This document shows positions 14,298 to 43,909 of a stretch of DNA of 64,000 nucleotides, in pieces (within the stretch, counting starts at the first letter, position 1; every line of letters begins with the position of its first letter). The stretch is from the NCBI GenBank assembly GCA_015295985.1, contig DVDX01000032.1, forward strand, positions 44,740-108,739, written 5' to 3'. The DNA comes from Synechococcus sp. M44_DOE_062. Its GTDB lineage: Bacteria; Cyanobacteriota; Cyanobacteriia; Thermostichales; Thermostichaceae. The translations under genes were made by a program, and so were the position numbers. The notes beneath the pieces are model-generated. The model searched no databases. It was not told the DNA's origin and was given only the letters and a program-made list of their open reading frames with translations.

Positions 14298-14300
14298 TCT

Positions 14301-15361: not shown

Positions 15362-15473
15362 TAGTCACTTCAATTGAAACTGGGACACTGTGCCCAAACC
15401 CAAAACGTTGAACACAGAAGCTAGAAGGCTTTTCCCAGTAGCCCAGGTGTCTCATTCTAACCTGAAACGACTG
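15362..15473 (+). mobile_element. MITE-like repeat copy D (112 bp, TA-flanked, imperfect 28-bp terminal inverted repeats)
   Basis: TA|TAGTCACTTCAATTG...CTAACCTGAAACGACTG|TA; the two ends match at 19 of 28 positions as inverted repeats; homologous to 23002-23145, 34923-35122 and 43804-43909. Confidence 0.75.
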
Positions 15474-15564
15474 TAAGATCGCCCCAAGACCTCGCAGGCT
15501 GGAATGCTCAATGAGCGTACAGCCGTATGGAGTCAGTGCTGCTGGAAAGAAGTCCGAGGACTCA

Positions 15565-15984
15565 CTAGGGGCTTGCGGTGGGTTCCGGCAAAACGTAAAT
15601 GGACTCCACCTGCCGCCCTGCCGATGGCACTGCTTGGATGATGCCCTTGTCGATGTGGTAGATGACCTTCTCCGCTTGCAACTGATTTTCCCCTTGGTTG
15701 ATGATGACTTGGCCCTCCAGCTCAATGCGTTGCTCCTGGCTGTAGTACACGGCTCTTTGGGCGCGGGCCGTCAGCCGCTCGGCAGGAAAACTGAGGGTGA
15801 CATTGCCAATGGCCGTAAAAACTCCCGTGTTGGCGTTGGCTTCCTGAACATCGGCGCTGATGCTGATGGCACGGGGATTCTGACCCCAAGCCGGGATCCC
15901 AAGGGCGAGCACCATACCCACAGCCCAGCTCAGTGCCTTCAGCCGCTTCCAACCCTTCCGGCCAAGCGCTATCTCCAAAGTCAT
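15565..15984 (-). CDS. LptA/OstA-family protein
   Basis: Signal peptide, then ISADVQEANANTGVFTAIGNV, ARAQRAVYYSQEQRIELEGQV. Confidence 0.85.
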   Translation of the reverse strand: MTLEIALGRKGWKRLKALSWAVGMVLALGIPAWGQNPRAISISADVQEANANTGVFTAIGNVTLSFPAERLTARAQRAVYYSQEQRIELEGQVIINQGENQLQAEKVIYHIDKGIIQAVPSAGRQVESIYVLPEPTASP

Positions 15985-16059
15985 GCCCCATCACCCCGTC
16001 AATCCACCCCAGCAGCCAGTCTAGCCTCTCAATCCTGGTCACAATGGCGGGGCAGCCTA

Positions 16060-16401
16060 CTAGCCCGTTTCCTTTCCTCCCTGCGGCAGAGCTTGGGCAA
16101 GCTGTCTTTCCAATTCGGCAACCCGTTGCATGAGCTGCCGGTTGGCCTCCAGCAGCTCCCGCGCCTGGCTGTTGAGATAGGGATCCGATTCCCACCAATT
16201 GATGCCGATCTCCTTGGCCTTATCCACCGAAGAAATGAGCAGGCGAATGCGCACATTCAGCAACTCCACATTGCCCACGGAAACGGTGATGTCTCCGGCG
16301 ATTACAATGCCCTTATCCAGTACCCGCTCCAACACATCGGCCAGCGAGGAGCCGTGAGTAGCCGTGGTCAAGGGTTGAGAGCTAATCGGCACAGGGTTCA
16401 T
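16060..16401 (-). CDS. gvpJ: Gas vesicle protein GvpJ
   Basis: SSLADVLERVLDKGIVIAGDI...RIRLLISSVDKAKEIGINWW; follows gvpN. Confidence 0.9.
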   Translation of the reverse strand: MNPVPISSQPLTTATHGSSLADVLERVLDKGIVIAGDITVSVGNVELLNVRIRLLISSVDKAKEIGINWWESDPYLNSQARELLEANRQLMQRVAELERQLAQALPQGGKETG

Positions 16402-16433
16402 CGACCTCCAAAGCGTACCAACAGGCAAAAGAC

Positions 16434-17318
16434 TCAGCCAGGCAGTTGGTCTAGCAGATAATTCAGCAACTGGGATCCCTCTTCATAGCGCTTGCCGGCT
16501 CGCGGCAACAGCACATCCGCACACAAAGCGCGAAAATCGGCATTCTCCTTGCTGACCGCCAGCTCATGTTCCTTGACAATGCGCCCGATCATCAAACAAC
16601 TGCGCAGGCTGGGGTGGCGCGTCAGATCCAGCTTGCGGCGAAAAGCCCGCACAATGTGGACGATCTTGAGCGCATCAGGACCGGATAAGCCTATTCGCGA
16701 GGTGAGGATCTCTTTTTCGGTCTCGATGTCCGGCTCCCCCATATCGATGGTGATCATCCGATCCAGCAGCGCATCTTGGGCCTTGTGAACCCCAGTGTAT
16801 TCCTCCGGGTTAGAGGTAAAAATGGCCCGGAACTGGGGATGCACCCGCAGATATTCCGAGCGGTTGCTGTCCGGCGGCAACACCAGCAGCCTCTCCTCCA
16901 GAGCACTCAGGAGAGCATTGTTGGCCTCAGGGCGGGAGCGATTGAACTCGTCGTAGATGAGGGTAAACCCCTCTCGGCAAGCCAAGGTAAGGCGGGCATC
17001 CACCCAGCGCTGCTGCACATCCTCCTCCGTCTTCACCACCGAGTGAATGAAGTTGTCCACCACCCGCCGATGGGTAAAGCCGGTGCGCCCCCCAATGAGG
17101 TCGGAAGAATCGAAGCGGTCATCCCCGTAGATCAGCATAATGGGACGACCCAGCAGGCTGGCCAGGTGCATCGCCAAAGTGGTTTTGCCTGTACCCGAAG
17201 GCCCCCGCAAGTGCACCGCAAAGCCCGATTGCAAATAGCGCAAAGCGCGGCGAGTAATCCGCTCAATATAGGGGGTGTTCACGAACTGGCGGGGACGCGC
17301 CTGCAGAACCGTGGCCAT
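16434..17318 (-). CDS. gvpN: Gas vesicle AAA+ ATPase GvpN
   Basis: HLRGPSGTGKTT, LIYDEFNRSRPE, FTSNPEEY, QDALLDR. Confidence 0.95.
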   Translation of the reverse strand: MATVLQARPRQFVNTPYIERITRRALRYLQSGFAVHLRGPSGTGKTTLAMHLASLLGRPIMLIYGDDRFDSSDLIGGRTGFTHRRVVDNFIHSVVKTEEDVQQRWVDARLTLACREGFTLIYDEFNRSRPEANNALLSALEERLLVLPPDSNRSEYLRVHPQFRAIFTSNPEEYTGVHKAQDALLDRMITIDMGEPDIETEKEILTSRIGLSGPDALKIVHIVRAFRRKLDLTRHPSLRSCLMIGRIVKEHELAVSKENADFRALCADVLLPRAGKRYEEGSQLLNYLLDQLPG

Positions 17319-17397
17319 AGGAATACCCAACCTCTTTGCTGCCTCAGACTTCTTTGCCTTGACTATAGCCCGGATGTTCTTCCTGCGCTCAGTTCAA

Positions 17398-18429
17398 CTA
17401 AATTGCGACCGTCCCCGACACCATGCGCCGCAACGTAACCAAGATTTCCGAGGGATCCACCCCCAGATCCACTGCGCCGCGGGCCAGCAGATCGCGCACC
17501 CGTTCCCGATCCCCAATCACCTGCAGCAGGGTCAGGTTGGGATCCTGCGCCTGTAGGTCACTCACATAGGCATTGACATAAGCAACGATGGGATCCACCT
17601 GTTCCTCAGCCGTAGGCGGAACTTCAGGGGGTTTAGGTGCTGTTGAATCCTCTGAGGGCTGGGGCTGGGGAACAGAGACCAGGACGGGCGACTCCAGTGG
17701 GGCTGGGTCTTCGGCCATGGGCGTCGCGTCAGAGGCAGGCACTGGCGCTTCAACCGCAATCTCAACCGAACTGCCAGAGCTTTCACTGGAAATGGAGACC
17801 TCAGGTTCTGGGCTGAGAACAGGGATCCCATTGCCCCACACCTGCTCCCGCAACTCCACTCGGAAAGTGGCCAGGGATCCCCGTAGGGCCTGCGCTTGGG
17901 CTTGCTGTTCCTGGGCCATCTGAGCCAGCTCCTGTCGAGCCATTTGTCGGAGAGCTTGCACCCACTGCCGCAGATCAGCGCAAAAAGACTGCCGCGCTTG
18001 CTGAGTTTCGCCGGCCATCGCCTGCCGAGCCTGCGTATAGGTGCTCAGCAAATGCTCCACAGCTGCAGTCAAGTTGGCCTGGAAAGCCTGCAATTGCTGC
18101 CGGCTGGCTTCCGATTGAGCAGCCCGTTCCCGCTCCAGGCAAGCAAGACGCTCTGCCACCGATTTGGCCCGCTGAGCCGCTGCTTTCGAACGGGAGTCTT
18201 CGTCCAGGGATCGCCTCACAGCCCGCTCCTGCCTCAATTTCCGCAGTTGGCTGCGGGTTTGCTCCGTCTGCTGCCGTAGTGCTTCTTGTCGTTGTTGGCG
18301 GCGCTGCCCTAGCTCAGCCATCACAGCTCGGTGCTGCTCTAGGCGCTGCTGCCGGGATCGGCTCAATAAACTTCGATTCTGAGCCACCCGCTGGCTGCGG
18401 GCCATGGCCCATTGTTCCTGCAAACTCAT
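17398..18429 (-). CDS. gvpC: Gas vesicle protein GvpC with an extended Pro/Glu-rich linker and C-terminal domain
   Basis: MSLQEQW start, Ala/Gln/Arg-rich helical repeats ending LREQVWG, position between gvpA and gvpN. Confidence 0.75.
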   Translation of the reverse strand: MSLQEQWAMARSQRVAQNRSLLSRSRQQRLEQHRAVMAELGQRRQQRQEALRQQTEQTRSQLRKLRQERAVRRSLDEDSRSKAAAQRAKSVAERLACLERERAAQSEASRQQLQAFQANLTAAVEHLLSTYTQARQAMAGETQQARQSFCADLRQWVQALRQMARQELAQMAQEQQAQAQALRGSLATFRVELREQVWGNGIPVLSPEPEVSISSESSGSSVEIAVEAPVPASDATPMAEDPAPLESPVLVSVPQPQPSEDSTAPKPPEVPPTAEEQVDPIVAYVNAYVSDLQAQDPNLTLLQVIGDRERVRDLLARGAVDLGVDPSEILVTLRRMVSGTVAI

Positions 18430-18881
18430 GATCTCCAATCCCTCACGTCGTTTTCAATGCTTGGGCGGATACCGCTTCTTTAGTTCTTTCCAAACTCAAT
18501 ATCCACTGGCAGTGCCCGCCTGCAGCTCAATAGGTCTGCAAGACTCACTACCTGAACAAGACCCATGGGAGCAAGGCAGAGACCGGCGGCGGATCCCTGC
18601 CTCACTTTCCGACGGCTAACCCCCTACGCCTCTGCCCAGAGCGCATAACTCGTTTAGCTATCGCGACCCTCAAGGCAAGAGGGCTGTGGGCACTTCTCTT
18701 GATCTCGATTTGATTGAGTGTGATTGAGTAAACTACTCCTAGCTAAAGCAGGGAGCTTTCAGTAGCCCTGTAGTTGGCAAGCCAACCACGGGCCTCTGGG
18801 GTGGTTTACAGCACCCCCAATCGACCGTTACCAGTGCCTTAAACAACCGTTTCTGGTACCCGCACTATTACAATGACACAA

Positions 18882-18897
18882 GGCAACTGAAGTTGCC
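18882..18897 (-). terminator. Stem-loop downstream of gvpA (terminator or processing/stability element)
   Basis: GGCAAC-TGAA-GTTGCC perfect 6-bp stem about 70 nt after the gvpA stop, followed by TTGTGT on the minus strand. Confidence 0.4.
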
Positions 18898-18969
18898 CAA
18901 GGAGCTTTCTTCCCCGCACTAAAGTACGGGGCTTCCAGCCTAACCCAATGTGATTTTGACTGGGCAGAT

Positions 18970-19188
18970 TTAGACGGCAGGAGCAGCAGCGGTAGCTGTT
19001 AGACCCACAGCCTCAGCATACTTCAGGTAGGTTTCCACAGAAGCCACAACGACGCGGGCTTCAATGGCCAGCAGCTCGATCCCAACCAAAGAAACCCGCA
19101 CCCAGGCATCGACAACGATACCTTTGTCCAAGATGCGATCGATCACTTCGGCCAAGCTGGAAGAAGAGTTCACTTTTTCGACTGCCAT
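18970..19188 (-). CDS. gvpA: Gas vesicle structural protein GvpA
   Basis: [40 protein letters not shown], near-canonical GvpA. Confidence 0.98.
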
Positions 19189-19504
19189 GACAAGTTCTCC
19201 TGCGCTAGTGGTGCTGGTTAGAGAGACGAAGCAATGAGCGGCAAAACCTTAGGGCAGAAGGAGCCCAAAGCCCCGGCTACACCTCTCACAGGGCGACAAG
19301 CCGCACTTTTCATTGCTCTATGCCTTATTTTGATGCCTTCCCACAGGGACAACACCCGTAAATCCGCTTAAAAAAGAAAACGAATTTCAGCGATTTGTTG
19401 CTTGTTGTGAAGTACACCCCTTGAGCCAGGGTACCCCTCAACAGAGCAAAGTGGGTGAGTTGATGCCCTGGAAAAGCAGCAAGGATCCCCTGCAACAGCT
19501 ACGG

Positions 19505-19510
19505 TATAAT
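19505..19510 (+). promoter_or_regulatory. Putative -10 box (TATAAT) for hfq
   Basis: Perfect TATAAT about 60 nt upstream of the hfq GTG. Confidence 0.45.
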
Positions 19511-19572
19511 GGGGCTAGCTCACCTCCTAGGTAGTGGGTAGGCATGTCCTCTTGCTGGCTCAGAATGCTGCT

Positions 19573-19794
19573 GTGACTGACTTCAACACCGGGATCCCGA
19601 GCGTGCGTCGCCTGCAGAAGGGGATCAAGGATCGGGAAACCTTTGAAATTAAGCTCAGTACGGGGGATGTCTTTGTTGGCCAGTTGCGCTGGCAAGATCC
19701 TGATTGCCTCTGTTTGGCCGATGCCGAGGGACAGGAGTCGCTGCTGTGGCGCTCGGCCATTGCTTTTGTCAGGGTCAGGCCCCGATCTCAGTAG
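19573..19794 (+). CDS. hfq: Cyanobacterial Hfq-like Sm protein
   Basis: TDFNTGIPSVRRLQ...EIKLSTGDVFVGQLRWQD...AIAFV matches the cyanobacterial Hfq pattern; GTG start at 19573. Confidence 0.85.
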   Translation: MTDFNTGIPSVRRLQKGIKDRETFEIKLSTGDVFVGQLRWQDPDCLCLADAEGQESLLWRSAIAFVRVRPRSQ

Positions 19795-19970
19795 TGCTCC
19801 AGATCCCTCTACGGCTCTTCTTCCCCATTCTTGAACAAATCTTTACAACTCTTTATAACAACTCAGGACTTTTCTGCCTCGCTTTGAGGGCAGTCGCCTC
19901 CAGGTAAACATGCCAATTAAGAAGGGTATGATAAGGAGTGCTAAAAAACGTGCTCTCTCCTCACCCAACC

Positions 19971-20654
19971 ATGACGACCGCCACCATTGAGATACCGCTT
20001 CAGCCTGCTGCCCAACGGCACAATCACTACAGCCGCGAAGACTTTTTCCGCTTTAACCTCTCCCAGGGATCCCTTGTGGACTGGACAGGTGCCCGCAATG
20101 TCTTGGTGAGCGAAGACTTTATTCTGGGCTTGCAGCAGGGCCTGGAAGAAGAGGTGGGAGATGCCTCGGCTTCTCTGATGTATACCATTGGTCAAGAGTG
20201 GGGACGCAACGATGCCGTCCATTTTTCCCGCTGGTTTGAGGAGGAATATCGGCGCCAGCCCAAGCAGAGTAATCTCATGTTTCTCTTGGAAACCTGGTGG
20301 TGGCCTCTGACCTCGCAAGGATGGGGGCGCTGGGAGGTGGAGACCGAGAGTCGGCGGCAAGGGTTTATTTTCATCAACCTCTTTGACTCGGCTGTGGCCC
20401 GCACCCTGGGGGATGTGGGCAAACCTGTCTGTCATCTTTATGCCGGATTGTTTGCCGGCTTTTTTAGCACCATGGTGGAACGGCAACTGAATTGCATCGA
20501 GATCCAGTGCTACTCCATGGGGGAGAGCTATTGTAAGTTTTTGCTCGGCAGCAAAGATCGCATCGATGCGGCTGCTTTTTGGCTGAACGAAGGGGCCAGT
20601 GCTAGCGAAATTGCCCAAAAATTGCGCTCAGGCCAGGGAGTAGCCAAGGCATGA
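19971..20654 (+). CDS. V4R-domain protein (Slr0144-like)
   Basis: GWGRWE, FDSAVARTLG, PVCHLYAGLFAGFF, CIEIQCYSMGESYCKF. Confidence 0.85.
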   Translation: MTTATIEIPLQPAAQRHNHYSREDFFRFNLSQGSLVDWTGARNVLVSEDFILGLQQGLEEEVGDASASLMYTIGQEWGRNDAVHFSRWFEEEYRRQPKQSNLMFLLETWWWPLTSQGWGRWEVETESRRQGFIFINLFDSAVARTLGDVGKPVCHLYAGLFAGFFSTMVERQLNCIEIQCYSMGESYCKFLLGSKDRIDAAAFWLNEGASASEIAQKLRSGQGVAKA

Positions 20655-20902
20655 CCTGGAAGATTGCTTTAGAAGATTCGGTGCAGAGCTTTTTTGCCCG
20701 TCTAAATTGGGATAACCGCCCTTTGCGGATGCGCACTCTGCCGATGCCTTTTCTGCAAGTGCAGGAGCATTTTGGCTCCATCCCCTGGGCCGGGGATCCC
20801 CTGAGTTTGGCCGCGCATTCTCTGGGATCCCTGTCGGCGGCACCGGAACCCGAGCCGGAAGAAGAACAGATCACCTTGGCGGATCTGTTCAGCCTGTTTT
20901 GA
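20651..20902 (+). CDS. Small hypothetical protein in the V4R operon (Slr0145-like position)
   Basis: Overlaps the upstream stop (ATGA coupling); FFARLNWDN, FGSIPW, TLADLFSLF. Confidence 0.7.
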   Translation: MTWKIALEDSVQSFFARLNWDNRPLRMRTLPMPFLQVQEHFGSIPWAGDPLSLAAHSLGSLSAAPEPEPEEEQITLADLFSLF

Positions 20903-20938
20903 GTCTCCTAGCACCCACTGACATCTGGGAGAAGCGAG

Positions 20939-21397
20939 ATGGTAAGCCCCTTGGAGCAGATGCTGATCGAGTCGGAAGCTCGCTACCTCAAGTCAGAGGA
21001 GCTGGAGCATCTAAAAGCTTATGTTCTCGGCTGGCCAAAACGGCAGCATGTGTACCGAGTTTTGCGGGAACGGGAGAGCCAGGTGGTGAGCCAAACCCTG
21101 GACGCCCTGCAGAAAGAGATGCCCGACCTTTCCCCTCCAGTGTTGGATCTGTGTCGGCGGCACCTGTTGTTGTTGCTGCGTCACAGCGCTATGGCCATGT
21201 TGCTGCAGGACGAAAACCTCCTCAAGGAGCGGCTGATCGAGTGGATGGAAGAAGAGGTGCGCCTGTACGGGCTGCAGAGGGTTTATGAGGTTGCCTATCG
21301 GATTTTCCAGCAAGAGCTGAGAGACCATTTGGCTCCTGGAGAGTTGGAGTTTATCCGCCCCTTGATCACCCAAGTACAGGTGGCCTTGCTGTTTTAG
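20939..21397 (+). CDS. Phycobiliprotein/globin-like protein (Slr0146-like)
   Basis: ESEARYLKSEEL resembles the phycobiliprotein N-terminus; all-helical; CRRHLLLLLRHSAMAML; lies between two V4R genes. Confidence 0.75.
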   Translation: MVSPLEQMLIESEARYLKSEELEHLKAYVLGWPKRQHVYRVLRERESQVVSQTLDALQKEMPDLSPPVLDLCRRHLLLLLRHSAMAMLLQDENLLKERLIEWMEEEVRLYGLQRVYEVAYRIFQQELRDHLAPGELEFIRPLITQVQVALLF

Positions 21398-21403
21398 AGC
21401 AAG

Positions 21404-21631
21404 ATGCTTTTTACTTTTGTTGATATCGCCAAAGGTGCTCCACCTCAACTGGTCGAAAACTTCGGTGTCGTTGGAGTTAATGCTAGTGTTGTAGTAAATC
21501 TGCTCAAGGATTGTTCAAGTGCTGGAAGGATCGCCATCAGATTTGGAGTGCAAACAACTGTTACCCCAGCTCAGCAACCAACGAACTATCAACTGTACCC
21601 TGCTCCTATTTTGATGCTTAAAGCCCAATAA
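21404..21631 (+). CDS. Possible small ORF inside the V4R operon
   Basis: ATG 7 nt after the upstream stop, 75 codons filling the gap; no recognisable family and lower GC. Confidence 0.3.
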   Translation: MLFTFVDIAKGAPPQLVENFGVVGVNASVVVNLLKDCSSAGRIAIRFGVQTTVTPAQQPTNYQLYPAPILMLKAQ

Positions 21632-21670
21632 CGACTTTCCTGATCGGATTTAATAACCAGGGGATCCCTT

Positions 21671-22357
21671 ATGAACGGCACCAGCTCTATCTCCAATGGC
21701 TCAGTCAACTTTGATCCCTATACGCCTGTTTTGGCCAACTACTACGCACCCAGTGCTTATCTGCGAAGCGATTTGGAATCCGGCTTACTGGAAAGTCGCC
21801 ACGGTGAGCGTCTCTTGGCCCTTCCAGAAGCATTGCTGCGGGGCATCTACACGGGCCTGGAATACGAGACTGGACAGGCTGCCCGTTTGGTGTTGCGTAA
21901 CTGTGGTCGGATGTGGGGCAAGGAGTTTTTTCGCCGTTTTGCCCAAGAACTCTCCGACTACTACCAGAAGCCTTTGGCCGAGTTGGAGATGGGCGTTTTC
22001 CTGCAAAGTCTAAGACAAGCTTGGAAAACTCATGGCTGGGGATTAATTGAGATCGACTGGACTTACAAAGATCAGGGAGTGCTGGTGGTGTCGATTCGCC
22101 ATTCTCCCTTCGCTGCCGTCACGCCTCCCCATTTCAAGCGTCCGATGGGCTTTTTGGAGGCAGGGCTGTTGGCCACCTGGTTTAGCCAGCTAACCGGCCA
22201 GGATTTGCTCTGCGTGCAAACCGCCAGCGAGGCTTTGGGAGCGGAGAGCAATTTGTTTGTCGTGACCACTGCTGCCCGCCTCAAAGAGGGAGAAGCCTGG
22301 GTGGACTCCGGCCTCAGCCACGAGCAGATCCTGGAAAAGCTCCTGCAACCCGGCTAA
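21671..22357 (+). CDS. Second V4R-domain protein (Slr0147-like)
   Basis: GERLLALPEALLRG, HGWGLIEIDW, GFLEAGLLATWFSQLTG, CVQT. Confidence 0.85.
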   Translation: MNGTSSISNGSVNFDPYTPVLANYYAPSAYLRSDLESGLLESRHGERLLALPEALLRGIYTGLEYETGQAARLVLRNCGRMWGKEFFRRFAQELSDYYQKPLAELEMGVFLQSLRQAWKTHGWGLIEIDWTYKDQGVLVVSIRHSPFAAVTPPHFKRPMGFLEAGLLATWFSQLTGQDLLCVQTASEALGAESNLFVVTTAARLKEGEAWVDSGLSHEQILEKLLQPG

Positions 22358-22460
22358 GTGACAGGAGCCGGCTTCCCCCAGAGGGGTGGGATCCCAGCAG
22401 GGATAAGTCTGTATAATTTTCTGGAAGCAAGGCGAGCTCAAGCGCACGAGGGTGTAGCCA

Positions 22461-22835
22461 TTGGGGTGGCGAGTCAGAGCAATTCGGGGAGCCATCACCG
22501 TACCTACAAACAGTGCCGAGGCCATTGGCGCGGCGGTAACTGAGCTGTTGGACACGCTAGAGCATCGCAACGCCCTCGATCCGACTGAATTGGTCAGCGT
22601 TATTTTTTCCGTTACCCCTGATTTAAATGCAGCTTTTCCCGCCCAATTTGCCCGTCGTCGCCCCGGTTGGGAGTCGGTGCCTCTGTTGGATGTGCAACAG
22701 ATGGAGGTGAGCAGTGACTTACCCCGTTGCATTCGCGTTTTGATCCAGTTGAATACTCCCCTTGCTCAAGCAGACATGCAGCATGTTTATCTGCGAGGTG
22801 CCCGCGAACTAAGGCCAGACCTCAGCACAGTTTGA
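22461..22835 (+). CDS. aroH: AroH-type chorismate mutase
   Basis: WRVRAIRGAITV, FSVTPDLNAAFPA, LPRCIRVLI, HVYLRGARELRPDL. Confidence 0.93.
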   Translation: MGWRVRAIRGAITVPTNSAEAIGAAVTELLDTLEHRNALDPTELVSVIFSVTPDLNAAFPAQFARRRPGWESVPLLDVQQMEVSSDLPRCIRVLIQLNTPLAQADMQHVYLRGARELRPDLSTV

Positions 22836-23001
22836 TTAGTACAGTTTGATTGCTTTATCGTTTATCCAGCATCCAACGCAGGAGTGTAGCCATAGCAATC
22901 AAATAGCAGCGAAATAACCTGTTACCTTGGGCAACAGGGAGAGCAATGAATTCTGGTTTCTGCCTGCTCATTTTGTTTGAAGGAAGGGCATGTCTCAACT
23001 C

Positions 23002-23145
23002 AAGTCATTCAGGTCGCACATAGTATTTCAGATTCTCTGAAATACTAAGATAAGACGTGCGGGCCACCGAGAAGAGCCTTCTAGGCTCCTGCATTCAATA
23101 CTTTAGGTGGGGAGTGCAGTGTCCTGGTTTGAATCAAAACGACCA
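23002..23145 (-). mobile_element. MITE-like repeat copy A (degenerate, with an inserted hairpin at 23021-23047)
   Basis: Shares CAGTGTCCTGGTTTGAATCAAAACGACCA|TA and GAGAAGAGCCTTCTAG with the other copies; left boundary approximate. Confidence 0.6.
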
Positions 23146-23234
23146 TAACCACCGGTTTGGTGATCCCAGCCGACTTAGGAGGGCGCAGAACATCTAGATT
23201 CACTTGCCTACTTTCAGACTTAAGACTTGAGAGC

Positions 23235-23636
23235 TTAAGGGGACAACTTTTCTCGCAGACGGTTTTCCCACTGTTGCAGTTGCTCTTGGCGAGCGGCCAC
23301 CTCTGCTTCGCGACGGCTCAGCTCTTGGCTTTGCCGAGTCAAGGATTGCCGCCAGCTTTCGATCTCCGACAGATCCACCAGACTGCGGCTTTGGGATAGG
23401 CTGTGCAGCATCTCCACCAGCTTCATAGCTGCCTCTTCCACCCGCTGTACCTGCCGCTCTCCCGAAAGCTCAACCAGCAGTAGCACCCCAATGTTGTAAG
23501 GGCCAGCCTCTTTGCAGGTGACGCATTCTGGCTTGCGCAGCGGCGTCCAAACCCCATCTTCGGCCTGGCAGGCCAAGAGCTGCAGCTCCCCCTGGCCGAA
23601 GAGACCTTTCTTGTGTACCCGTGCCAGATACAACAT
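23235..23636 (-). CDS. Short HmpF-like protein (N-terminal domain only)
   Basis: MLYLARVHKKG...LQLLACQ...LLVEL...RQVQRVEEA...EIESWRQSLTRQSQELSRRE matches the HmpF N-terminus as recalled; only 133 aa. Confidence 0.7.
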   Translation of the reverse strand: MLYLARVHKKGLFGQGELQLLACQAEDGVWTPLRKPECVTCKEAGPYNIGVLLLVELSGERQVQRVEEAAMKLVEMLHSLSQSRSLVDLSEIESWRQSLTRQSQELSRREAEVAARQEQLQQWENRLREKLSP

Positions 23637-23820
23637 GGAACCTGCAGGAAGATGACGCCAATCTTAGCACCGATCCCCTTTGTTATTTAAGAGGGATCCT
23701 GTCCCTAGACCCAAACCTGGGTTTGGTTGTCCGTGCCACCGGGAGGATCAATGTTAGGATCGGCTGTGGAATGGGTAAGGCTCAACGCTCTTCTGTCTTC
23801 ATCGTTTAGGGATCCCTGGC

Positions 23821-24627: not shown

Positions 24628-24707
24628 TGGGCTCTTGATGCCGATCTGAACTTGATAGGAGCAGCGCCAGCCTTGTTTGAGAGGTGTGGTGAATCCGCTT
24701 GGATCCC

Positions 24708-34872: not shown

Positions 34873-34922
34873 GAAACCTAGCCTTGCTTGAAAACGGCGG
34901 CAGATCTCGCTCAAGACTTATA

Positions 34923-35122
34923 TAGCCGCTTCAGGTTAGGGTGAGACGCCTGGGCTACTGAGAAAAGTCTTCTGTTTGGCGCATTATTGCTCCGCAACGC
35001 TGTTGCTATGCCTACGGCACCCTGACGGGAACCGCAACGCTGACGCGAGGACGCGACGACGCGACGGCGTGACCAATGTTTTAAGTGTGGATACAGTGTC
35101 CTGATTTGAATCGAAATGGCCA
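34923..35122 (-). mobile_element. MITE-like repeat copy B, expanded by nested small repeats
   Basis: TA|TAGCCGCTTCAGGTTAGGGTGAGAC...CAGTGTCCTGATTTGAATCGAAATGGCCA|TA with TA on both sides; about 90 extra nt of SDR-like sequence inside. Confidence 0.75.
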
Positions 35123-35380
35123 TAGTTGTTCTAAGCAGGAATACAACTATTCCGTTTCATTGCTTCCTAGCTCCTGTTTCCCTTTGCCTGGGAGCAGTCG
35201 CGGAAGTAGTGCGGAGCAGTTGGGAAGTATCTTAATCTAACTTGAAATAACCATACGCACGACTGAAAGCGGTTGTTCGTTTTGCCTATCATGAGCCGGT
35301 GTGAGATTCTAATCTCTCGATAATTTCTCGGATAAGATGCTCATCAGAGTGCTTGATCTCCGGGTGGGAAGGCACCTGTT

Positions 35381-35989: not shown

Positions 35990-36031
35990 GACCACCCGCG
36001 GTACTTCTGCTCTAGCATGCCCCAATGGCTC

Positions 36032-36493: not shown

Positions 36494-36564
36494 AGGGCTC
36501 TCCAGCACAGGAATGCGAGCAGGGTCTCCAGGGATCCCATCTGATCTGGTCCTCTTGTCCTGTC

Positions 36565-37458
36565 CTAATGCTGACGACGAGTGATAAAATCCGCCAGGGC
36601 TAGTAGCGGCTCTGCCCGCGATCCATAGGGGCGCAACGCTTCCTTGGCCGATTGAATCAGCTCCTCGGCTTTCTGCCGGGAAGCCTCTAGGCCCAACAAG
36701 CTAGGATAGGTAGCCTTGGCGGCAGCTTGATCCTTACCTGCTGTCTTGCCCAGTTGCTCGCTGGTGGCGGTGATATCCAAAATGTCGTCCACAATCTGAA
36801 AAGCCAGGCCAATATCGCGGGCGTAGCGGCTCAGGTGGGCCAGCAGCTCTTCATCTCCCCCCGCCAGGATCCCTCCCGAAACCACCGAGACCTCCAGCAG
36901 AGCGCCGGTCTTGTGGCTGTGAATGTACTCCAGAGTTTCCAGGGAAATGGCTTTGCCCTCCGACTCCAGATCCACCACCTGCCCCCCTACCAACCCGGTT
37001 GCAGCCACAGCGTGGCCAATGCGGGCGATCACCTGCAACACCAACTGCGGCGGTACCCCCTGAGTTTGGCTGGCAATGTGCTCAAAGGCAAAAGCCAGCA
37101 GGGCATCTCCCGCCAAGATAGCAATGTCTTCGCCGAACACTTTGTGGTTGGTGGGTTTGCCGCGGCGAAAGTCGTCATTGTCCATGGCCGGCAGATCGTC
37201 ATGGATCAGCGACATGGTGTGGATCATTTCCAGGGCACAGGCGGTAGGCAGAGCCTGCTCCACAGTGCCGCCGGCCAACTCGCAAGCAGCCAGACAAAGA
37301 ATGGGCCTGAGGCGCTTCCCCCCTGCCAACAGGCTGTAGCGCATCGCCTCGTAAATACGCTCCGGATAGGCGGGAACCAGAGCTGCAGAGAGAGCCTCTT
37401 CCACCTGTTGCTGACGCTGGCTCAGGTAGGTTTTTAGGTTAAAAGTTTGGGCAACCAA
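36565..37458 (-). CDS. crtE: Geranylgeranyl diphosphate synthase
   Basis: [41 protein letters not shown]. Confidence 0.95.
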
Positions 37459-37700
37459 GCGGGGTTTCCTCTCAACTCGGCAATGGGGGGATCCTTGTCG
37501 AGCCGTTCTTCAACAGACTTGCCAGGTGTCATTATCTCATGTCCACTTCAAGGGAGATCCCAGCCTAGAGGCCAAAAGGACAAGAAGTAACGGCAAGTTG
37601 CAGCCGATGAAGAAACTACAGGGATCCTGAGCTGCCAACTTGCGGTTGCTGTCGCCACAATGTCAGGATTCAGAAGGATCTTTAGCCGGATTGCCCTCCT

Positions 37701-38801
37701 ATGTCGCACTCGCCTGTTCAGCTCAGCGCCACCTCCTCCACAGCCAGCGGTGGGGAGCACTTGGGTGACCGTTTGCTGCGGGCGGCCCGAGGGGAAGTGC
37801 TGGATCGCCCTCCGGTTTGGATGATGCGCCAGGCGGGTCGCTACATGGCGGCCTACCGCGAGCTGCAAAGCAAGTACACCTTCAAGCAGCGTTGCGAGAT
37901 TCCGGAGCTGGCCATCGAGATCTCGTTGCAACCGTTTCGGGCCTTTGCCCCTGATGGGGTGATCCTGTTCAGCGATATCCTCACCCCCCTTGAGGGCATG
38001 GGCATCCCCTTTGAGCTGGTGGAGCATCAGGGGCCAATCATTGACCCGCCGATTCGTTCGCAAGCCCAAATTGAACGGATTCGCCTGCTGGAACCGGAAG
38101 AGAGTCTGCCCTTCATCAAGACCATTCTCAGCACCCTGCGCCGCGAGGTGCAAGGAAAAGCGACACTGCTGGGGTTTGTCGGCTCCCCCTGGACTCTGGC
38201 TTGCTATGCCGTGGAAGGGCGTAGCTCCAAAGATTATGCCCACATCAAGAGCTTGGCCTTTACGCAGCCGCAACTGCTGCATCAGTTGCTGAGCAAGCTG
38301 GCCGACAGCATTGCCCGCTACGTGATCTACCAGATCGAGGGCGGTGCCCAGGTGGTGCAGTTGTTCGATACTTGGGCCGGACAGCTCAGCCCAGCCGATT
38401 ACGAGTGTTGGGCCTTGCCCTATCAGAAGCAAATTGTGGATCAGGTGAAAGCTCGATATCCCCAAGTGCCGCTGATCCTCTACATCAACGGCAGCGCTGC
38501 TTTGCTGGAGCGGGTGGGCAAAGCCGGGATCGACGTGTTTAGCCTCGATTGGATGAGCGATATGGCAGAGGCCAGAGCCCGCCTGGGATCCCTAGCGGTA
38601 CAGGGCAATCTGGATCCGATGGTGTTGCTGGGATCCCCCGAGTTCATCCGGCGGCGTACCCTAGAGGTGATTCAAAAAGCCGGATCCCGTGGACACATCA
38701 TGAACTTGGGCCATGGCATTCACCCAAGCACTCCAGAGGCCAATGTCCATCACTTTTTCGAGACGGTGCGCCAGTCGGCAGAGCTTCTAAAAGCCCTCTA
38801 G
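37701..38801 (+). CDS. hemE: Uroporphyrinogen decarboxylase
   Basis: [36 protein letters not shown]. Confidence 0.97.
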
Positions 38802-38895
38802 CCCAACAGGCAGCGCCAACCCACTTTCTGTGAGTACGCGGCGTTTTTACCCACCTTTTGCTCAAGGGTTGCACAGCCATCCCTAGGGATCCCCG

Positions 38896-39879
38896 GTGTA
38901 TATCAGCGTTATCATTCCCACCTACAACCGCCGTCCCATTCTGGAGCAGTGTCTGCGGGCCTTGGCCCAACAACAGCCCGGCCCCTACGATGGCTACGAG
39001 GTGGTGGTGGTGGACGACGGCTCCACCGATGGCACGGTAGAGTGGCTACAGAACAACCCCATTGGCCTGCCCCAGTGGAAACTGTTGCAGCAGGAGCACC
39101 GTGGCCCCGCCGCTGCCCGCAACTTGGGGTTTCGCCACGCCCAGGGATCCCTCATCGTCTTTATTGACAGCGACCTGGTGGTGGTAGATCACTTCCTGGC
39201 CAGCCACGCCCAGGTGCTGCGGCGCCACGGCGTTACAGGGGATCCCCGCTCCCCCCACGAGGCCAAGGTCTTCACCTACGGGCGGGTGATCAACACCAGC
39301 AATTTTCAGGATCCCCGCTCCGAACCCTTCAAACCCACCGATTTTTCGGCAGCCTTTTTCGCCACCGGCAACGTGGCTATTGCCCGCCATTGGTTGGAGC
39401 GGGCCTGCGAAACCCCCGCCGGCCCCTTTGACGAGCGGTTTCACCTCTACGGCTGGGAAGACCTGGAGCTGGGGGTGCGGCTAAAACGTTTGGGCCTGCG
39501 CCTGGTCAAGTGCCCCCAGGCCACCGGCTACCACTGGCATCCACCCTTTGAGCTGCAGCAGATCCCCGCCCTTATCGAGCGGGAACGGCAACGGGGTCGC
39601 ATGGGCATTCTCTTTTACCAAAAACACCCCACCTGGGCGGTGCGCCTGATGATCCAACTGACACCCCTGCACCAATGCCTGTGGGGTCTTTTGTCCCTGG
39701 GGGGATGGCTGAACGAGAAACGGGTGGAACCACTGCTGCGCTGGTTGATCCGGCAGGGCCGCTCGCAGTTGGCCTTGGAGCTGTGCCGGATTTTTTTCCT
39801 CAACTGGTACAACGTGCAGGCGGTTTACGAAAGCTACAGAGCGATGAAAGTGCGAAATAAGGGGATCCACTCTGCTTGA
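38896..39879 (+). CDS. Glycosyltransferase family 2
   Basis: SVIIPTYNR, VVDDGSTDGT, FIDSD, YGWEDLELG. Confidence 0.92.
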   Translation: MYISVIIPTYNRRPILEQCLRALAQQQPGPYDGYEVVVVDDGSTDGTVEWLQNNPIGLPQWKLLQQEHRGPAAARNLGFRHAQGSLIVFIDSDLVVVDHFLASHAQVLRRHGVTGDPRSPHEAKVFTYGRVINTSNFQDPRSEPFKPTDFSAAFFATGNVAIARHWLERACETPAGPFDERFHLYGWEDLELGVRLKRLGLRLVKCPQATGYHWHPPFELQQIPALIERERQRGRMGILFYQKHPTWAVRLMIQLTPLHQCLWGLLSLGGWLNEKRVEPLLRWLIRQGRSQLALELCRIFFLNWYNVQAVYESYRAMKVRNKGIHSA

Positions 39880-40715
39880 GCTGCCACCAGGGCAGAGTAA
39901 GTGAGTCGGCCATAATCCTTGCCGGGAATGAGAGGCTCGCCGGGATCCGGATCGGTGCAGCTCAGGGGTTCCCAAACGGCACCGGCCCCTTTGACAATGA
40001 CCCACACTGCCGCCACATCCCAGATCTTGGGCGAGCGTTCTACCGCCCCCAAAAGGCTGCCACCGGCCACCGCCAGCAGGTTGTAGGCAGCACCTCCCAA
40101 CATGCGCGCCTTGCAGGGGAAGTGCGGGCTAATCCAATGGGTGCTGCGGGAGCAGAAGTTAAACAATTGGTTGGGGCCAGGTGAGGCGGTACTGGGACGG
40201 ATTGGCTGGGGACAGGCGGGATCCCGGTCGTGGCGGGTGAGAAAAGCCCCTGCCGCTGCATCATCGGGAAACTGGGGCCAGTAGCCGTAAAAAGTCTGGC
40301 GAATGGGCGGCAGATGGACACAGCCAAACACCGGTACGCCCCAATGCAGCAAAGCCAAGGAACTGCCCCAAATGGGGATCCCACGGGCAAAATTGGTGGT
40401 GCCATCCAAAGGATCCACTACCCAACACCACTCCTTGTCGGGGAAAATGTGGTTAGACTCCTCGCTCAGGTAACCGTGATCGGGGTAGGCAGCGGCAATA
40501 GCTCTTTGAAAAGCGCGATCCGCCCATTCGTCAGAAGAGGTTACCAAGCTGCCGTCAGCTTTTAAGGACTCCGTCCCGCTGGCGCGAGCCGTGGGGTGGG
40601 CCTGGCCAAAGTCTGCCAAGAGCTGGGATCCCACGCTGGCCGTGACCTGCAGGGCAAACTCGGTAACCTCCAGCCAGAAAGGGGATAGAGCAGCAGTTGC
40701 AGAAGGAGCATTCAT
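39834..40715 (-). CDS. Inositol monophosphatase family protein
   Basis: SEE, WVVDPLDGTTNF, WDVAA. Confidence 0.9.
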   Translation of the reverse strand: MNAPSATAALSPFWLEVTEFALQVTASVGSQLLADFGQAHPTARASGTESLKADGSLVTSSDEWADRAFQRAIAAAYPDHGYLSEESNHIFPDKEWCWVVDPLDGTTNFARGIPIWGSSLALLHWGVPVFGCVHLPPIRQTFYGYWPQFPDDAAAGAFLTRHDRDPACPQPIRPSTASPGPNQLFNFCSRSTHWISPHFPCKARMLGGAAYNLLAVAGGSLLGAVERSPKIWDVAAVWVIVKGAGAVWEPLSCTDPDPGEPLIPGKDYGRLTYSALVAAQAEWIPLFRTFIAL

Positions 40716-40851
40716 GCCCCCATCCTAGCGGGATCCCTGGCTTTTGGGGTGAAGAAGGGTTCGCAATGGCAGCGGATCCCTTACCAGCAGGTTTTAAGCC
40801 TCTAAGCTGACTAGAATCATAGGTAGACTCCCCGGCTGGCTGCCCTCCTCC

Positions 40852-42828
40852 ATGAACCAGCGCCTGATTGGACAACTGATTGGCAACCGCTACCGGCTGA
40901 CCTACCACATCAGCGAAGGTGGCTACGGCAATGTGTTCAAGGCGGTGGATACCCAGCTCAATGACGAGGTGGTGGCCGTCAAGTTGCTGCGCCCGCCGCC
41001 ACCGGACATGGGCCCAGAGTACTACCAGCAACTGCAGCAACGCTTCATGGATGAGGCCAGGGTCAGCGCTCTATTGGGCGAGCACCCCAACATCGTGCAG
41101 GTGCGCTCTTACGGCCTGTACCAAAACCAGCCCTACCTGGTGATGGAGTACCTGAACGCCAAACCCTACAGCGGCCAGGGGTTGGACTATGTGCTGGCTC
41201 GGGAAGGACCCTTGCCCCCAGAGCGGGTGGTGAACTTAGCTCTGCAGATTTGCTCTGCCCTGCACCACGCCCACAACTTTCAGATGGATCTGGGCAAGCA
41301 CTCCATTCGCGGCGTCATCCACCGCGACATCAAGCCCAGCAACATCTTTGTGCAGAAATGGCCCGATGGGAAAGAGCGGGTCAAGATCCTAGACTTTGGC
41401 ATTTCCAAGCTCATGGGAGAGATCTCTCGTGACCTGACGCAAACGGGCTATTTTTTGGGCACGATGGTCTATGCCTCGCCGGAGCAAATGCGCGGAGAAA
41501 AGCTGGATGGCCGCTCCGACATCTATTCGCTGGGGGTGGTGCTGTACGAGCTGTTAACCGGTGCGTTGCCCTTTGAGCCGGATACCGATACCTTGCAGGG
41601 CTGGTACCACGTCCACAACTTTCAAAAACCCCGCCCTTTCCAAGACCGCAAGCTAGCCCACCCCATCCCCGCTGCCCTGGAGAAGGTTGTCCTCCAGTGC
41701 CTGGAGAAAGACCCTGCCCTCCGCCCGGCCAACATGGAAGTGCTCGGCCAGCAGCTACAGGCTGTCTATGGAAACAAGATCGCCCCTCCTGCCCCGTTCG
41801 TTCCCTCAAGTTCATCTCATGCATCTCCAGGTGTTCGTCCCCAGCAGATCCCGACTGGATTTGGCCAGCCGACTTTCCAACAGCCGATGGGTGGAGCCGC
41901 TTCAGATGGGGAGGAAAAGCTACAGGAGGCGGTCAGTCTGATCGAGGCAGGTGAGTACAAGATGGCCGTCCATCTGCTCAACGAGCTGATCCAGAGCGCC
42001 CCCAACGAAGCCCGCTACTATCTCTACCGCGGTCTAGCCCACCAACGGCAGGGGCATTGGGGCCTTGCCCAGATGGACTACCAAGGGGTGCTGCGGCTGG
42101 AACCGGGTAACCCTTCAGCAGAACAGGGACTGCGCGAGGTAGAGCAGAAAGTTAGGCAGGAACATGTCAACAGTAAGTCTGGTTCTCATCTGTTGTTGAA
42201 TGTGTTGAACACGCCACGCCTGAGCAAAGGGTTGGCGTTGGGCTGGCTCTTGGCCAATTGGGGGGCGGCTGGGATCGGCTACCTGGGGCTGGGGGCATTG
42301 GCTCCTCTGCTGGCGGCTTTGGGATCATTGCAGGGGGCGGTGGCTGGGGCTGGCCTTGGCTTGCTGATGGGGCTGCTGCAGTGGGCGGTGTTGCGGCGGC
42401 AGGTTTCTGGGGGATGGGTGGCTGCAACTCTGCTGGCCACGGCTTTGGGTTGGGTGGCGGCGGATTTCCTCGCTCTCCAGGTGGGGGTGGCAACCTCTGC
42501 CTTTAACCCGACGGATCCCTGGCTCCAGAACGCCTTGCGGGCCATGGGGGATGCGCTGCGCGGTTTGCTGGTGGGGGTTGGCGTCGGTGGGCTGCAGTGG
42601 GCCTTGTTGTCTCAGCGCTGGAAAGGTAGCCGGGCTTGGATCTTGGCAGCAGTTGCAGAAGGGGTGGGATCGGCTCTGTTGATGGGTTGGCTGCTGGCCA
42701 ATACTGCCTTGAACAGTTGGCTGCTGCTGATCGTGGGGCTACTGGCCAACACGCGCCCCCTCAGCGCAACGGTGCTTTTGAATTTGCGCCGGATCCCTGC
42801 TGTTCAAAGTCAACAGCAAGCCTCTTAG
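40852..42828 (+). CDS. Ser/Thr protein kinase with a TPR module and multi-TM C-terminus
   Basis: GGYGNVF, VAVK, HRDIKPSN, DFG, YASPE; TPR about 41900-42150; hydrophobic repeats at the end. Confidence 0.92.
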   Translation: MNQRLIGQLIGNRYRLTYHISEGGYGNVFKAVDTQLNDEVVAVKLLRPPPPDMGPEYYQQLQQRFMDEARVSALLGEHPNIVQVRSYGLYQNQPYLVMEYLNAKPYSGQGLDYVLAREGPLPPERVVNLALQICSALHHAHNFQMDLGKHSIRGVIHRDIKPSNIFVQKWPDGKERVKILDFGISKLMGEISRDLTQTGYFLGTMVYASPEQMRGEKLDGRSDIYSLGVVLYELLTGALPFEPDTDTLQGWYHVHNFQKPRPFQDRKLAHPIPAALEKVVLQCLEKDPALRPANMEVLGQQLQAVYGNKIAPPAPFVPSSSSHASPGVRPQQIPTGFGQPTFQQPMGGAASDGEEKLQEAVSLIEAGEYKMAVHLLNELIQSAPNEARYYLYRGLAHQRQGHWGLAQMDYQGVLRLEPGNPSAEQGLREVEQKVRQEHVNSKSGSHLLLNVLNTPRLSKGLALGWLLANWGAAGIGYLGLGALAPLLAALGSLQGAVAGAGLGLLMGLLQWAVLRRQVSGGWVAATLLATALGWVAADFLALQVGVATSAFNPTDPWLQNALRAMGDALRGLLVGVGVGGLQWALLSQRWKGSRAWILAAVAEGVGSALLMGWLLANTALNSWLLLIVGLLANTRPLSATVLLNLRRIPAVQSQQQAS

Positions 42829-42971
42829 CCCACAGGGATCCCATTCCGAAAAACAACTTCAGTTCGACAGTCCTTTTGACTCTCTCTCGGAAAGAGGGGA
42901 GCCAGGAATCGAAATAGGTCATTTTGGGATCCCGTAAAGCAATGGCAATTCAACTGCAACATTCACGCAAC

Positions 42972-42999
42972 AAAAAGGCCCCCTTTCGAGGGCTTTTTT
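42972..42999. terminator. Intrinsic terminator-like hairpin (possibly bidirectional)
   Basis: AAAAAGGCCCCCT-TTCG-AGGGCTTTTTT. Confidence 0.65.
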
Positions 43000-43274
43000 G
43001 AGGATACTGTTGCGCCGTTTTACCGTGGTTTTCGACCTGGAAAATCCAGTATAGGATACCGGGGATGATTTTGATAGTTTCCAAATCTAAGTTTGGCTTA
43101 CTGCTCTCACATCCACTTCCCATCCTAATTGTCGAAGGGTATAGATCGCAAAAACATAACGGCAGTCACCAACGCCGCAGAATCCTCTCCCAATCATACC
43201 CCATTTTTGGGGTGTGCCCGTCAAGTGCTTATAAGGGCTAGGATGATAAAAGACAGCTTGACTTGTTGCTGGCC

Positions 43275-43799
43275 ATGCTCGGTTCCTGGTTAGACAACAT
43301 CTACGGCGCCTGGTTTCTGCCGGAGCGCACTTTCCGGGCATTGCGGGAACAGCCTGTTCTCTGGCAAGCCTTTGGGGTGGTAGGGCTGCTCAATATCCTG
43401 GAGGCCATTCGTCGCTCTGGGGCAAGCCTGCCGAACATGGTGCTGGCGGTACTGATGGGATCCCTGGGCTGGGTGAGTTTGGCGGCTTTGCTGCAGTTGC
43501 TGGCTTTCTGTTTGGGTCGGGCTGCCCCTTCCTTTTCGGTGCTGCTCTGCCTGACAGGGTTTGCCGGTTTGCCGTGGCTGCTGCTGGGGCCTGCTCAGTC
43601 GTTGGGCGGAGTGCCGGGATCCCTGCTGGGCCTTGCAGCGCTGCTGTGGTTTGTGGTTTGGCAGGTGCGAGCGGTGGCTGTAGCGCTGGATTTGGAGTGG
43701 TGGCGCCTAGTGGGCCTGATCCCATTGGCTTTCCTAGGGGGGATCCTGTCCCTGAGCTGGCTGACCAGCGGCGTCGTTGCTTTGGCTTCCTTAGGCTAG
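43275..43799 (+). CDS. Yip1-family membrane protein
   Basis: DNIYGAWFLPERTF, TGFAGLPWLLLGP, multiple TM helices. Confidence 0.85.
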   Translation: MLGSWLDNIYGAWFLPERTFRALREQPVLWQAFGVVGLLNILEAIRRSGASLPNMVLAVLMGSLGWVSLAALLQLLAFCLGRAAPSFSVLLCLTGFAGLPWLLLGPAQSLGGVPGSLLGLAALLWFVVWQVRAVAVALDLEWWRLVGLIPLAFLGGILSLSWLTSGVVALASLG

Positions 43800-43803
43800 T
43801 TTG

Positions 43804-43909
43804 CAGTCGTTTCAGTTTCAAGTTAGGGTGAGACCTCTGGGCTGCCGAGAAAGGGGTTCCGGCTGTTTTGGGTGTGGGTGCAGTGTCCTAGTTGGAGTTG
43901 AAATGATCA
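43804..43909 (-). mobile_element. MITE-like repeat copy C
   Basis: CAGTCGTTTCAG...TTAGGGTGAGACC...CAGTGTCCTAGTTGGAGTTGAAATGATCA|TA; starts 5 nt after the Yip1 stop. Confidence 0.75.

Follow-up and report, generated by a model that had tools for sequence, protein, structure and literature searches.

The TA-flanked repeats of the window, by which is meant the whole 64,000-nt stretch of the Synechococcus sp. M44_DOE_062 genome analysed here, are best explained (at a probability of roughly 0.88) as an IS630/Tc1-mariner-derived MITE which inserts at TA, was mobilised in trans, is now fossil or near-fossil and was later invaded by 24-nt hairpin units. Exactly four copies are found in the window (Table 1), and an nhmmer profile built from them gave 80 matches in the 2.9-Mb genome. 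Using paired end profiles, 46 complete copies of 97-297 bp were found on many contigs, together with approximately 25 more half copies located mostly at contig ends; the total occurrence was put at about 50-60. The strict 12-nt terminus TAYRGTCRTTTY was seen 46 times in the genome against an expectation of 2.6. The sequence-only reading had foreseen further copies genome-wide, and this is borne out by the complete and partial copies here as well as by others in two sister genomes.

Table 1. Repeat copies and hairpin units in the window; positions are counted from its first nucleotide.
Feature	Position	Strand	Remarks
Hairpin unit TTCGCGCCAGCGGGACGGAGTCCT	13086-13109	+	another 24-nt copy
MITE copy D	15362-15473	-	short form, 112 bp; TA at 15360-61 and 15474-75
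MITE copy A	~23021-23147	+	5' end degenerate, carries a 14-nt insertion
MITE copy B	34923-35122	+	long form, 200 bp; TA at 34921-22 and 35123-24
Insert in copy B	34986-35074	-	89 bp; nested 24-nt units and a GACGCGAn octamer tract
Second low-copy repeat	35125-35253	+	abuts copy B; TA-flanked; 4-5 genome copies
Hairpin unit CTCGCGCCAGCGGGACGGAGTCCT	40565-40588	-	exact 24-nt in-frame insertion, 8 added residues ARASGTES
MITE copy C	43804-43909	+	short form; 6-nt duplication and internal deletion; TG left, TA right

The family consensus, yAGTCGTTTCAGGTTAGGGTGAGAC...CAGTGTCCTAGTTTGAATCGAAATGACCA with TA on either side, describes a unit of about 117 bp without coding capacity. Its terminal inverted repeats are imperfect and span about 30 bp, comprising a terminal TAGTCrTTTC and a subterminal GAGAC/GACAC box; when the left end (TATAGTCGTTTCAGGTTAGGGTGAGAC) is compared with the reverse complement of the right end (TATGGTCATTTCGATTCAAACTAGGACAC), approximately 18 of 30 positions match and the terminal 12 nt are near-identical. 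The two boxes are also the best-kept columns of the element, CAGTGTC being invariant in 18 of 18 copies. The copies are old, with an identity to the consensus of about 85% (10-20% divergence) and no pair of them exceeding 91%. The earlier description of an old, non-autonomous element is in keeping with this divergence, the multiple copies and the non-coding unit.

The shared core and far end previously reported at four places in the window were recovered, with all copies located as claimed. The core, CAGTGTCC, begins at 23117, 35094 and 43881, and copy B has the far end, TTCAGGTTAG..TGAGAC, which copy D carries as its reverse complement and copy C very nearly matches. The TA dinucleotides described on both sides of B and D were likewise seen, and the gene context stands, with A, B and C in convergent spacers and D upstream of an MsrP-like gene (Pfam). 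Copy A is flanked by a chorismate mutase gene (22461-22835, plus strand) and an ORF (23235-23636, minus strand), and its 14-nt insertion produces a 9-bp palindrome, GTATTTCAG-attct-CTGAAATAC, at 23023-23045. A TauD-family gene, plus a short ORF, converges with another ORF on copy B (Pfam), whilst copy C begins 5 bp past the stop codon of a Yip1-domain gene, with a convergent MreD gene beyond (Pfam). Copy D lies between two minus-strand genes, the one about 100 bp downstream being the MsrP-like gene (14301-15260, minus strand), a molybdopterin oxidoreductase (Pfam Oxidored_molyb). The second repeat, abutting copy B, has a right end, TTGAAATAACCA followed by TA, which resembles the MITE end; neither this repeat nor copy B is present at the orthologous site in the relative G005.

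The flanking TA is a target-site duplication, because clean empty sites in sister genomes have a single TA. Five copies (C17:15804, C35:12382, C28:102353, C28:43285 and C26:122135) are filled here and empty with a single TA in G005; at the first of these, CAGGTTA[element]TACTTCG corresponds to CAGGCTACTTCG in G005. The reverse case was also found, a locus of a second relative, G001 (L057), reading ..gacaTA[element]TAgtgc.. against an empty ..tagaTAgtgt.. on our contig C82, so that the empty single-TA sites expected from the earlier reading exist in both directions. One of the six G005 comparisons, that of the own-only copy C26:22294, gave an empty site without TA. TA stands on both sides of only 19 of the 46 copies, with boundaries as drawn here, the others having TG, CA or similar; such flanks are consistent with decay, and are not proof of it. 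In the window, copy C is matched by a copy at the orthologous site in G005, and that site is empty in G001, G003, G006 and G011. Clean empty sites were not found for copies A and D, where the spacers are too diverged or hold other repeats; the G005 site orthologous to copy D has just a remnant of about 32 bp composed of the two termini.

The family is confined to three of 12 congeneric genomes, and was not found in 29 more distant relatives. At least 11 orthologous copies are held in common with G005 and one with G001. Separately, a single 31-nt match (E 5.7e-4) was noted in G021, a genome of the same family. Convergent spacers hold 24 of 40 MITE copies, as against 18% of all spacers (p = 7e-9), these context statistics being based on the gene calls of a rough ORF scorer with about 82% coding coverage.

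An intact cognate transposase was found neither in this genome nor in its closest complete relative. Pfam DDE_3 has no match in this genome, not even as fragments at contig ends, and the sole transposase trace is a remnant of about 560 bp with the DDE region deleted (C7:95703-96266); G005 has just a 57-aa fragment. Pairing left and right ends up to 8 kb apart as a search for an autonomous element gave nothing longer than 297 bp. The nearest candidate for a source is a 940-bp IS630 in the congener G007 (contig C89) composed of orfA (113 aa), an A9 run and orfB (160 aa, Pfam DDE_3), with ends TA-TAGTCAATTCAGTTGGGAGTGAGAC...GTGTCTCATTCTTATTTGAATTGACTA-TA. These are similar, but not identical, to those of the MITE, matching at about 22 of 30 positions on the left (about 73%) and 18 of 27 on the right. 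The G007 element belongs to a widespread cyanobacterial IS630 clade with the terminal TAGTCrTTTC and subterminal GAGAC box in common; 80 related loci, with ends TA-TAGTCATTTCAAATAAGnnTGAGAC, were found in Microcystis, Microcoleus, Hormoscilla and Synechocystis salina, and the MITE end profiles match them precisely at the IS boundaries. The MITE has in common with this clade of about 950 bp the TA target duplication and the two boxes at equal spacing from the tip, whereas its interior has no detected relation to the IS. Its size, non-coding nature and intergenic position are typical of IS630/Tc1-mariner MITEs. ISY100 of Synechocystis PCC 6803 is presumably a member of the same IS630 group. The IS630 abundant in G001 (17 copies) was rejected as a parent, its ends (AGATACAGCC..) differing from those of the MITE. 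The earlier expectation of an IS630 with matching ends thus holds in part: a congener element and its clade have similar ends, but a transposase whose ends are identical did not turn up in the genomes and collections searched, and no intact one is present here.

The long MITE copies, B included, are built of nested copies of a 24-nt hairpin unit, TCGCGyCAGCG-NNNC-GkA-GNNN-Tw, in which the arm TCGCGyCAGCG is constant and the loop is GkA. The genome's commonest 14-mers belong to this unit, strict matches to which number 280 here against three in a reversed-sequence control, and conservation spans 24 nt. It is found across the genus, where unit counts in the 12 genomes range from 5 to 86, and is nearly absent outside it. 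At least seven stem variants are compensatory, base pairing being kept, and units occur both nested in one another's loops and as 24-nt tandems. In the insert of copy B a TGCC-GTA-GGCA unit lies inside the loop of a TTGC-GGA-GCAA unit, and the copy number of the octamer tract varies between metagenome contigs. Units also enter genes: the in-frame insertion listed in Table 1 lies in a conserved gene of the inositol-monophosphatase family (Inositol_P, 39834-40715, minus strand) and, in this one case examined, is held by this genome and G005 and missing in seven congeners. That these 24-nt hairpin elements are a family of their own which inserts preferentially into the inside of the MITE is, in our judgement, as likely as not.

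The history which best accommodates these results would run as follows. The DDE transposase of an IS630 element of about 950 bp, from the cyanobacterial clade with the same end architecture, probably moved the MITE in trans; it would bind the two boxes at each end and then cut and paste the element into TA dinucleotides, which were duplicated. The family spread in an ancestor which this genome shares with two sister species, and went on moving around or after their split. In this genome it is now probably fossil or near-fossil, since there is no intact cognate transposase and the copies are 10-20% diverged. Copies last chiefly downstream of genes, in convergent spacers, most likely because selection purged insertions in promoters and genes. 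Unrelated hairpin units later entered the inner part of almost half of the copies, and it is this invasion which accounts for long forms such as copy B.

Continued activity in the lineage, through an intact IS630 which lies in an assembly gap or comes from outside, is improbable, though it is the least so of the alternatives considered. Many of the 90 contigs of the assembly break in repeats and many end inside the MITE, therefore an intact IS may lie in a gap; moreover, at least five copies are missing from G005 with a clean single TA and at least one G001 copy is missing from this genome. However, recent movement is difficult to reconcile with the absence of any copy pair above 91% identity, or with own-only copies which are no nearer the consensus than those common to relatives. 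Copy B is fixed in three independent metagenome contigs, which differ there only by a change in 8-bp repeat number, DDE_3 is lacking even in fragmentary form at contig ends, and no plasmid or phage carriers of the MITE were found in the collections searched. It is less probable again that the repeats are not transposon relics but structured small-RNA genes or RNA regulators (3'-UTR stabilisers or terminators, for instance), maintained because of their fold. The ends of the MITE are able to pair into a long interrupted stem, its copies lie mostly at gene 3' ends and copy D holds one weak terminator-like match; against this, copies A, B and C have no terminator-like sites, and in the three copies tested the better-folding strand has z-scores of only -1.2 to -1.9, the opposite strand giving about 0 in two of them. 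The RNAalifold consensus reaches -6.2 kcal/mol, its covariation term being -1.05, and any double change is seen in just two of 21 pairs. In Rfam no family matches the MITE, the window matches being a tRNA and 6S RNA only, and between tandem gene pairs its orientation is mixed (eight same, five opposite). The TA duplication and the empty sites show that the copies were inserted and do not descend vertically from one gene. The suggestion of the sequence-only reading that the element shapes transcript ends finds no support in the sequence, because neither a conserved RNA fold nor a consistent, built-in terminator-like site was seen.

Least probable of all, and very unlikely, is that the family is of the REP/PATE type and was mobilised in single-stranded form by a Y1 transposase of the IS200/IS605 type. 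Y1_Tnp homologues do exist in this genome, at three loci (C71:48150, C7:110747 and C16:23029; four matches), with small hairpin modules just downstream of them as well as within many MITE copies. IS200/IS605 elements produce no target duplication, have no terminal inverted repeats and insert beside specific tetra- or pentanucleotides. The MITE, however, has both terminal inverted repeats and a TA duplication, and its ends match IS630 ends; moreover, the Y1 genes appear to be ordinary tnpA with YIQNQ or YIENQ motifs, that on C7 adjoins tnpB, and at least two of the three loci carry stop codons or a frameshift. The same loci are the candidates for a RAYT (TnpA-REP) gene flanked by the 24-nt units; they look like IS200/IS605 tnpA and have hairpin modules close by on their downstream side.

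The family has counterparts among cyanobacteria. Nelson, Bhaya and Heidelberg reportedly described, in 2012, miniature elements which are internal-deletion variants of ISSoc2 in near-exact copies. The strains JA-3-3Ab and JA-2-3B'a are presumably of the same host lineage as the MITE-bearing genome. ISSoc2-derived miniature elements in these thermophilic Synechococcus strains are cited in PMC10969869, and a figure legend in PMC10711439 gives ISSoc2 as a TnpB-bearing IS. Like our MITE, these miniatures are non-autonomous and mostly intergenic; the MITE differs from them in its IS630-type ends, in its duplication of TA and in the age and divergence of its copies. Nezha and the Microcystis MITEs (Zhou et al., 2008; Kaneko et al., 2007, PMC2779907), likened here by class alone, are also short, multi-copy, intergenic cyanobacterial elements with terminal inverted repeats. 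The searchable literature gave no paper in which such MITEs are linked with these strains; an earlier mention of the family is possible. The MITE itself is ordinary and the nested hairpin units are the more unusual point.

Small dispersed repeats of Nostocaceae, SDR4-6, are said to have been described by Elhai et al. in 2008. These, together with the Rickettsia palindromic elements, resemble the 24-nt units in being high-copy hairpins of 21-27 nt, inserted in conserved sequence and in frame in genes, nested in other repeats and found in tandem; they differ from them in sequence and in host. According to PMC5861425, SDR-like repeats had not been found outside Nostocaceae.

For this well-studied hot-spring cyanobacterial lineage, the MITE provides an annotation for some 50-60 unannotated repeats per genome and explains many assembly breaks. 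It documents an "orphan" family which outlived its own transposase, and its copies, whether shared, lineage-specific or decayed, are presence/absence markers which resolve the branching of sister species. The 24-nt units, for their part, lengthen conserved proteins by eight residues and remodel other repeats. If dedicated hairpin-recognising machinery moves them, they would constitute an SDR-like system outside Nostocaceae and be among the smallest mobile DNAs known, and the mechanism of movement would become testable because the genus has cultured strains and rich population metagenomes. If truly mobile, the units bear on how very small dispersed repeats move.

The four MITE copies (A to D) that the sequence-only reading had placed in the window were confirmed at the coordinates claimed, together with their shared core and far end, and the window holds exactly these four. 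The family is, as supposed, wider than this. The genome to which the window belongs comprises 2.93 Mb on 90 contigs with 58% G+C, the window being C26:44740-108739; in it a profile built from the four copies gave 80 matches, and left-end and right-end profiles, searched separately and then paired, defined 46 complete elements of 97-297 bp, leaving 12 left and 14 right halves unpaired. Most of these halves are no more than about 100 bp from the end of a contig, which shows that the repeat breaks the assembly. The strict terminus TAYRGTCRTTTY was observed 46 times in this genome against 2.6 expected.

Alignment of 23 short copies with their flanks revealed sharp element boundaries and a 117-bp consensus, TA-TAGTCGTTTCAGGTTAGGGTGAGACGCCTGGGCTACTGAGAAAAGCCTTCTGGCTCCGTGCATTCAACGTTTTAGGTGTGGGTGCAGTGTCCTAGTTTGAATCGAAATGACCA-TA. 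The termini are imperfect inverted repeats of which the outermost 12 nt are near-identical, and the subterminal boxes that follow, GAGAC on the left and GTGTC on the right, show the highest column conservation, CAGTGTC being invariant in 18 of 18 copies. At the 5′ end of copy A there is also a perfect inverted repeat of 9 bp (GTATTTCAG attct CTGAAATAC), the product of an insertion copying the element's own terminus in reverse.

Features in the window discussed in the text
Feature	Position	Strand	Remark
24-nt unit copy	13086-13109		
tRNA-Arg(CCG)	14223-14299	+	Rfam
MITE copy D	15362-15473	-	
MITE copy A	~23021-23147		
9-bp inverted repeat	23023-23045		in copy A
MITE copy B	34923-35122		
Nested 24-nt units	34986-35074		in copy B; TGCC-type unit within the loop of a TTGC-type unit
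GACGCGAn octamer tract	35045-35075		in copy B
Second TA-flanked repeat	35125-35253		adjoins copy B
Inositol_P gene	39834-40715	-	
24-nt insertion	40565-40588		in Inositol_P gene
6S RNA gene	43000-43186	-	Rfam, 49.7 bits; ~600 bp from copy C
MITE copy C	43804-43909		

Empty sites were sought by joining both flanks of a copy and matching them to the sister genomes. The proposed duplication of TA on insertion was borne out by clean pairs, with a single TA when empty and TA on both sides when filled: ..gacaTA[element]TAgtgc.. in the sister genome G001 against ..tagaTAgtgt.. in C82, a contig of the window's genome, and CAGGTTA[..]TACTTCG in its C17 against CAGGCTACTTCG in the second sister, G005. 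The same pattern was found at C35:12382, C28:102353, C28:43285 and C26:122135, the exception being C26:22294, where the empty site has no TA. The site of copy C is filled in G005 and without a copy in G001, G003, G006 and G011, and that of copy B is without the element in G005. The window's genome shares at least 11 orthologous copies with G005 and one with G001. The family was found only in these three genomes (at least 23 matches in G005, about four copies in G001); neither the nine other genomes of the genus nor 29 more distant relatives have it, except for one 31-nt match (E 5.7e-4) in a genome of the same family, G021.

Other elements have the same or similar ends. The G005 loci orthologous to D and A (C1:1919000-1920100 and C1:1926600-1927700) hold mini-elements of ~32 bp consisting of nothing but both MITE termini (TAGTCATTTCAAACAGCAATGAAACGATT), and the A site also holds a ~125-bp element with the same termini around a different interior, suggesting derivatives that arose by internal deletion as well as additional subfamilies built on these ends. 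The second TA-flanked repeat (4-5 copies), whose site in G005 is without it, has a right end, TTGAAATAACCA followed by TA, similar to that of the MITE and may thus be a related subfamily.

The family is old, as had been proposed: identity to the consensus ranges over 77-90% among short copies (mean 85%), and identity between copies averages 78%, no pair exceeding 91%. Orthologous copies in the window's genome and G005 share 80-97% identity, and those present only in the former look no younger than the shared ones. Copy B is letter-identical across three metagenome contigs save one 8-bp unit of its GACGCGAn tract, a small VNTR.

Based on our own ORF scorer, 24 of the 46 copies lie in convergent spacers, which make up 18% of all spacers (excess p = 7e-9), 13 in tandem and three in divergent spacers, the last being under-used; five overlap ORF ends and one is at a contig edge. 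Such an excess in convergent and deficit in divergent spacers is usual for tolerated insertions. The suggestion that the copies shape transcript ends is without sequence support, since folding shows no significant stability (z -1.2 to -1.9), the fold computed from the alignment is weak with almost no covariation, Rfam gives no match to the MITE, and no terminator-like site coincides with copies A, B or C; copy D has a weak one of five pairs.

Internal modules, present in 22 of 22 copies longer than 135 bp, are also found outside MITEs at 95-100% identity and supply the commonest 14-mers of the genome in a k-mer census (GCGGGACGGAGTCC, 154 times). They resolve into a single 24-nt hairpin unit, TCGCGyCAGCG-NNNC-GkA-GNNN-Tw, with 280 strict matches against three in a reversed-sequence control and at least seven stem variants, each with its complement (GGAC, TGCC, GTGC, TTGC, GGCC, GCGC, AGCC); one or more units are present in 21 of the 46 complete MITEs. 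Units also occur as pairs and triplets at exactly 24-nt spacing. The core 16-mer is present in 12 of 12 genus genomes (5-86 copies; controls 0) and nearly absent outside the genus. In the inositol-monophosphatase-family gene an exact in-frame unit-length insertion, common to the window's genome and G005 and missing in seven congeners, adds eight residues, ARASGTES, and contig C40 encodes a ~700-residue protein with several stretches of this type. Hairpin modules lie directly downstream of the Y1 transposase genes of the window's genome, which resemble ordinary IS200/IS605 tnpA and are interrupted by stop codons or a frameshift in at least two of three. The small dispersed repeats that Nostocaceae carry are the nearest known class; according to PMC5861425, none had been found beyond that family.

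Two further repeats were noted. A dispersed hairpin, CCCCTCTCC-n4-6-GGAGAGGGG then TTGGGGGTGAGGG, occupies intergenic spacers in several genus genomes (loci L037 and L039, and several spacers of the window's genome, e.g., near C8:16300), and a 36-nt repeat, GTTTCCAATTTCTAGGGATCCCCCCGAAGGGGGAAC, counted ~44 times in the k-mer census of that genome, is probably a CRISPR repeat.

For the proposed IS630 parent an exact partner was not found; similar ends exist in an element of the congener G007 and in its clade. Pfam DDE_3 has no match in the window's genome and only a 57-aa fragment in G005, and the IS630 of G001 (17 copies) was rejected as its ends, AGATACAGCC..., do not match. The G007 element (940 bp, L030 941-1881; orfA of 113 aa, an A9 run, orfB of 160 aa) has ends TA-TAGTCAATTCAGTTGGGAGTGAGAC and GTGTCTCATTCTTATTTGAATTGACTA-TA, identical to those of the MITE at ~22/30 and 18/27 positions. 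Relatives of its transposase number at least 462 and reach 77% identity; they come from Microcystis, Microcoleus, Hormoscilla, Synechocystis salina and others. Their ~950-bp elements terminate in TA-TAGTCATTTCAAATAAGnnTGAGAC, and the MITE end profiles match them precisely at their boundaries. Outside the window, C7:95703-96266 is a ~560-bp copy of an IS of this kind with the DDE region deleted, its orfA part sharing 70% protein identity with the G007 element. The family is thus an old, TA-duplicating MITE of IS630 type, now without a partner, and the earlier interpretation was right in kind.
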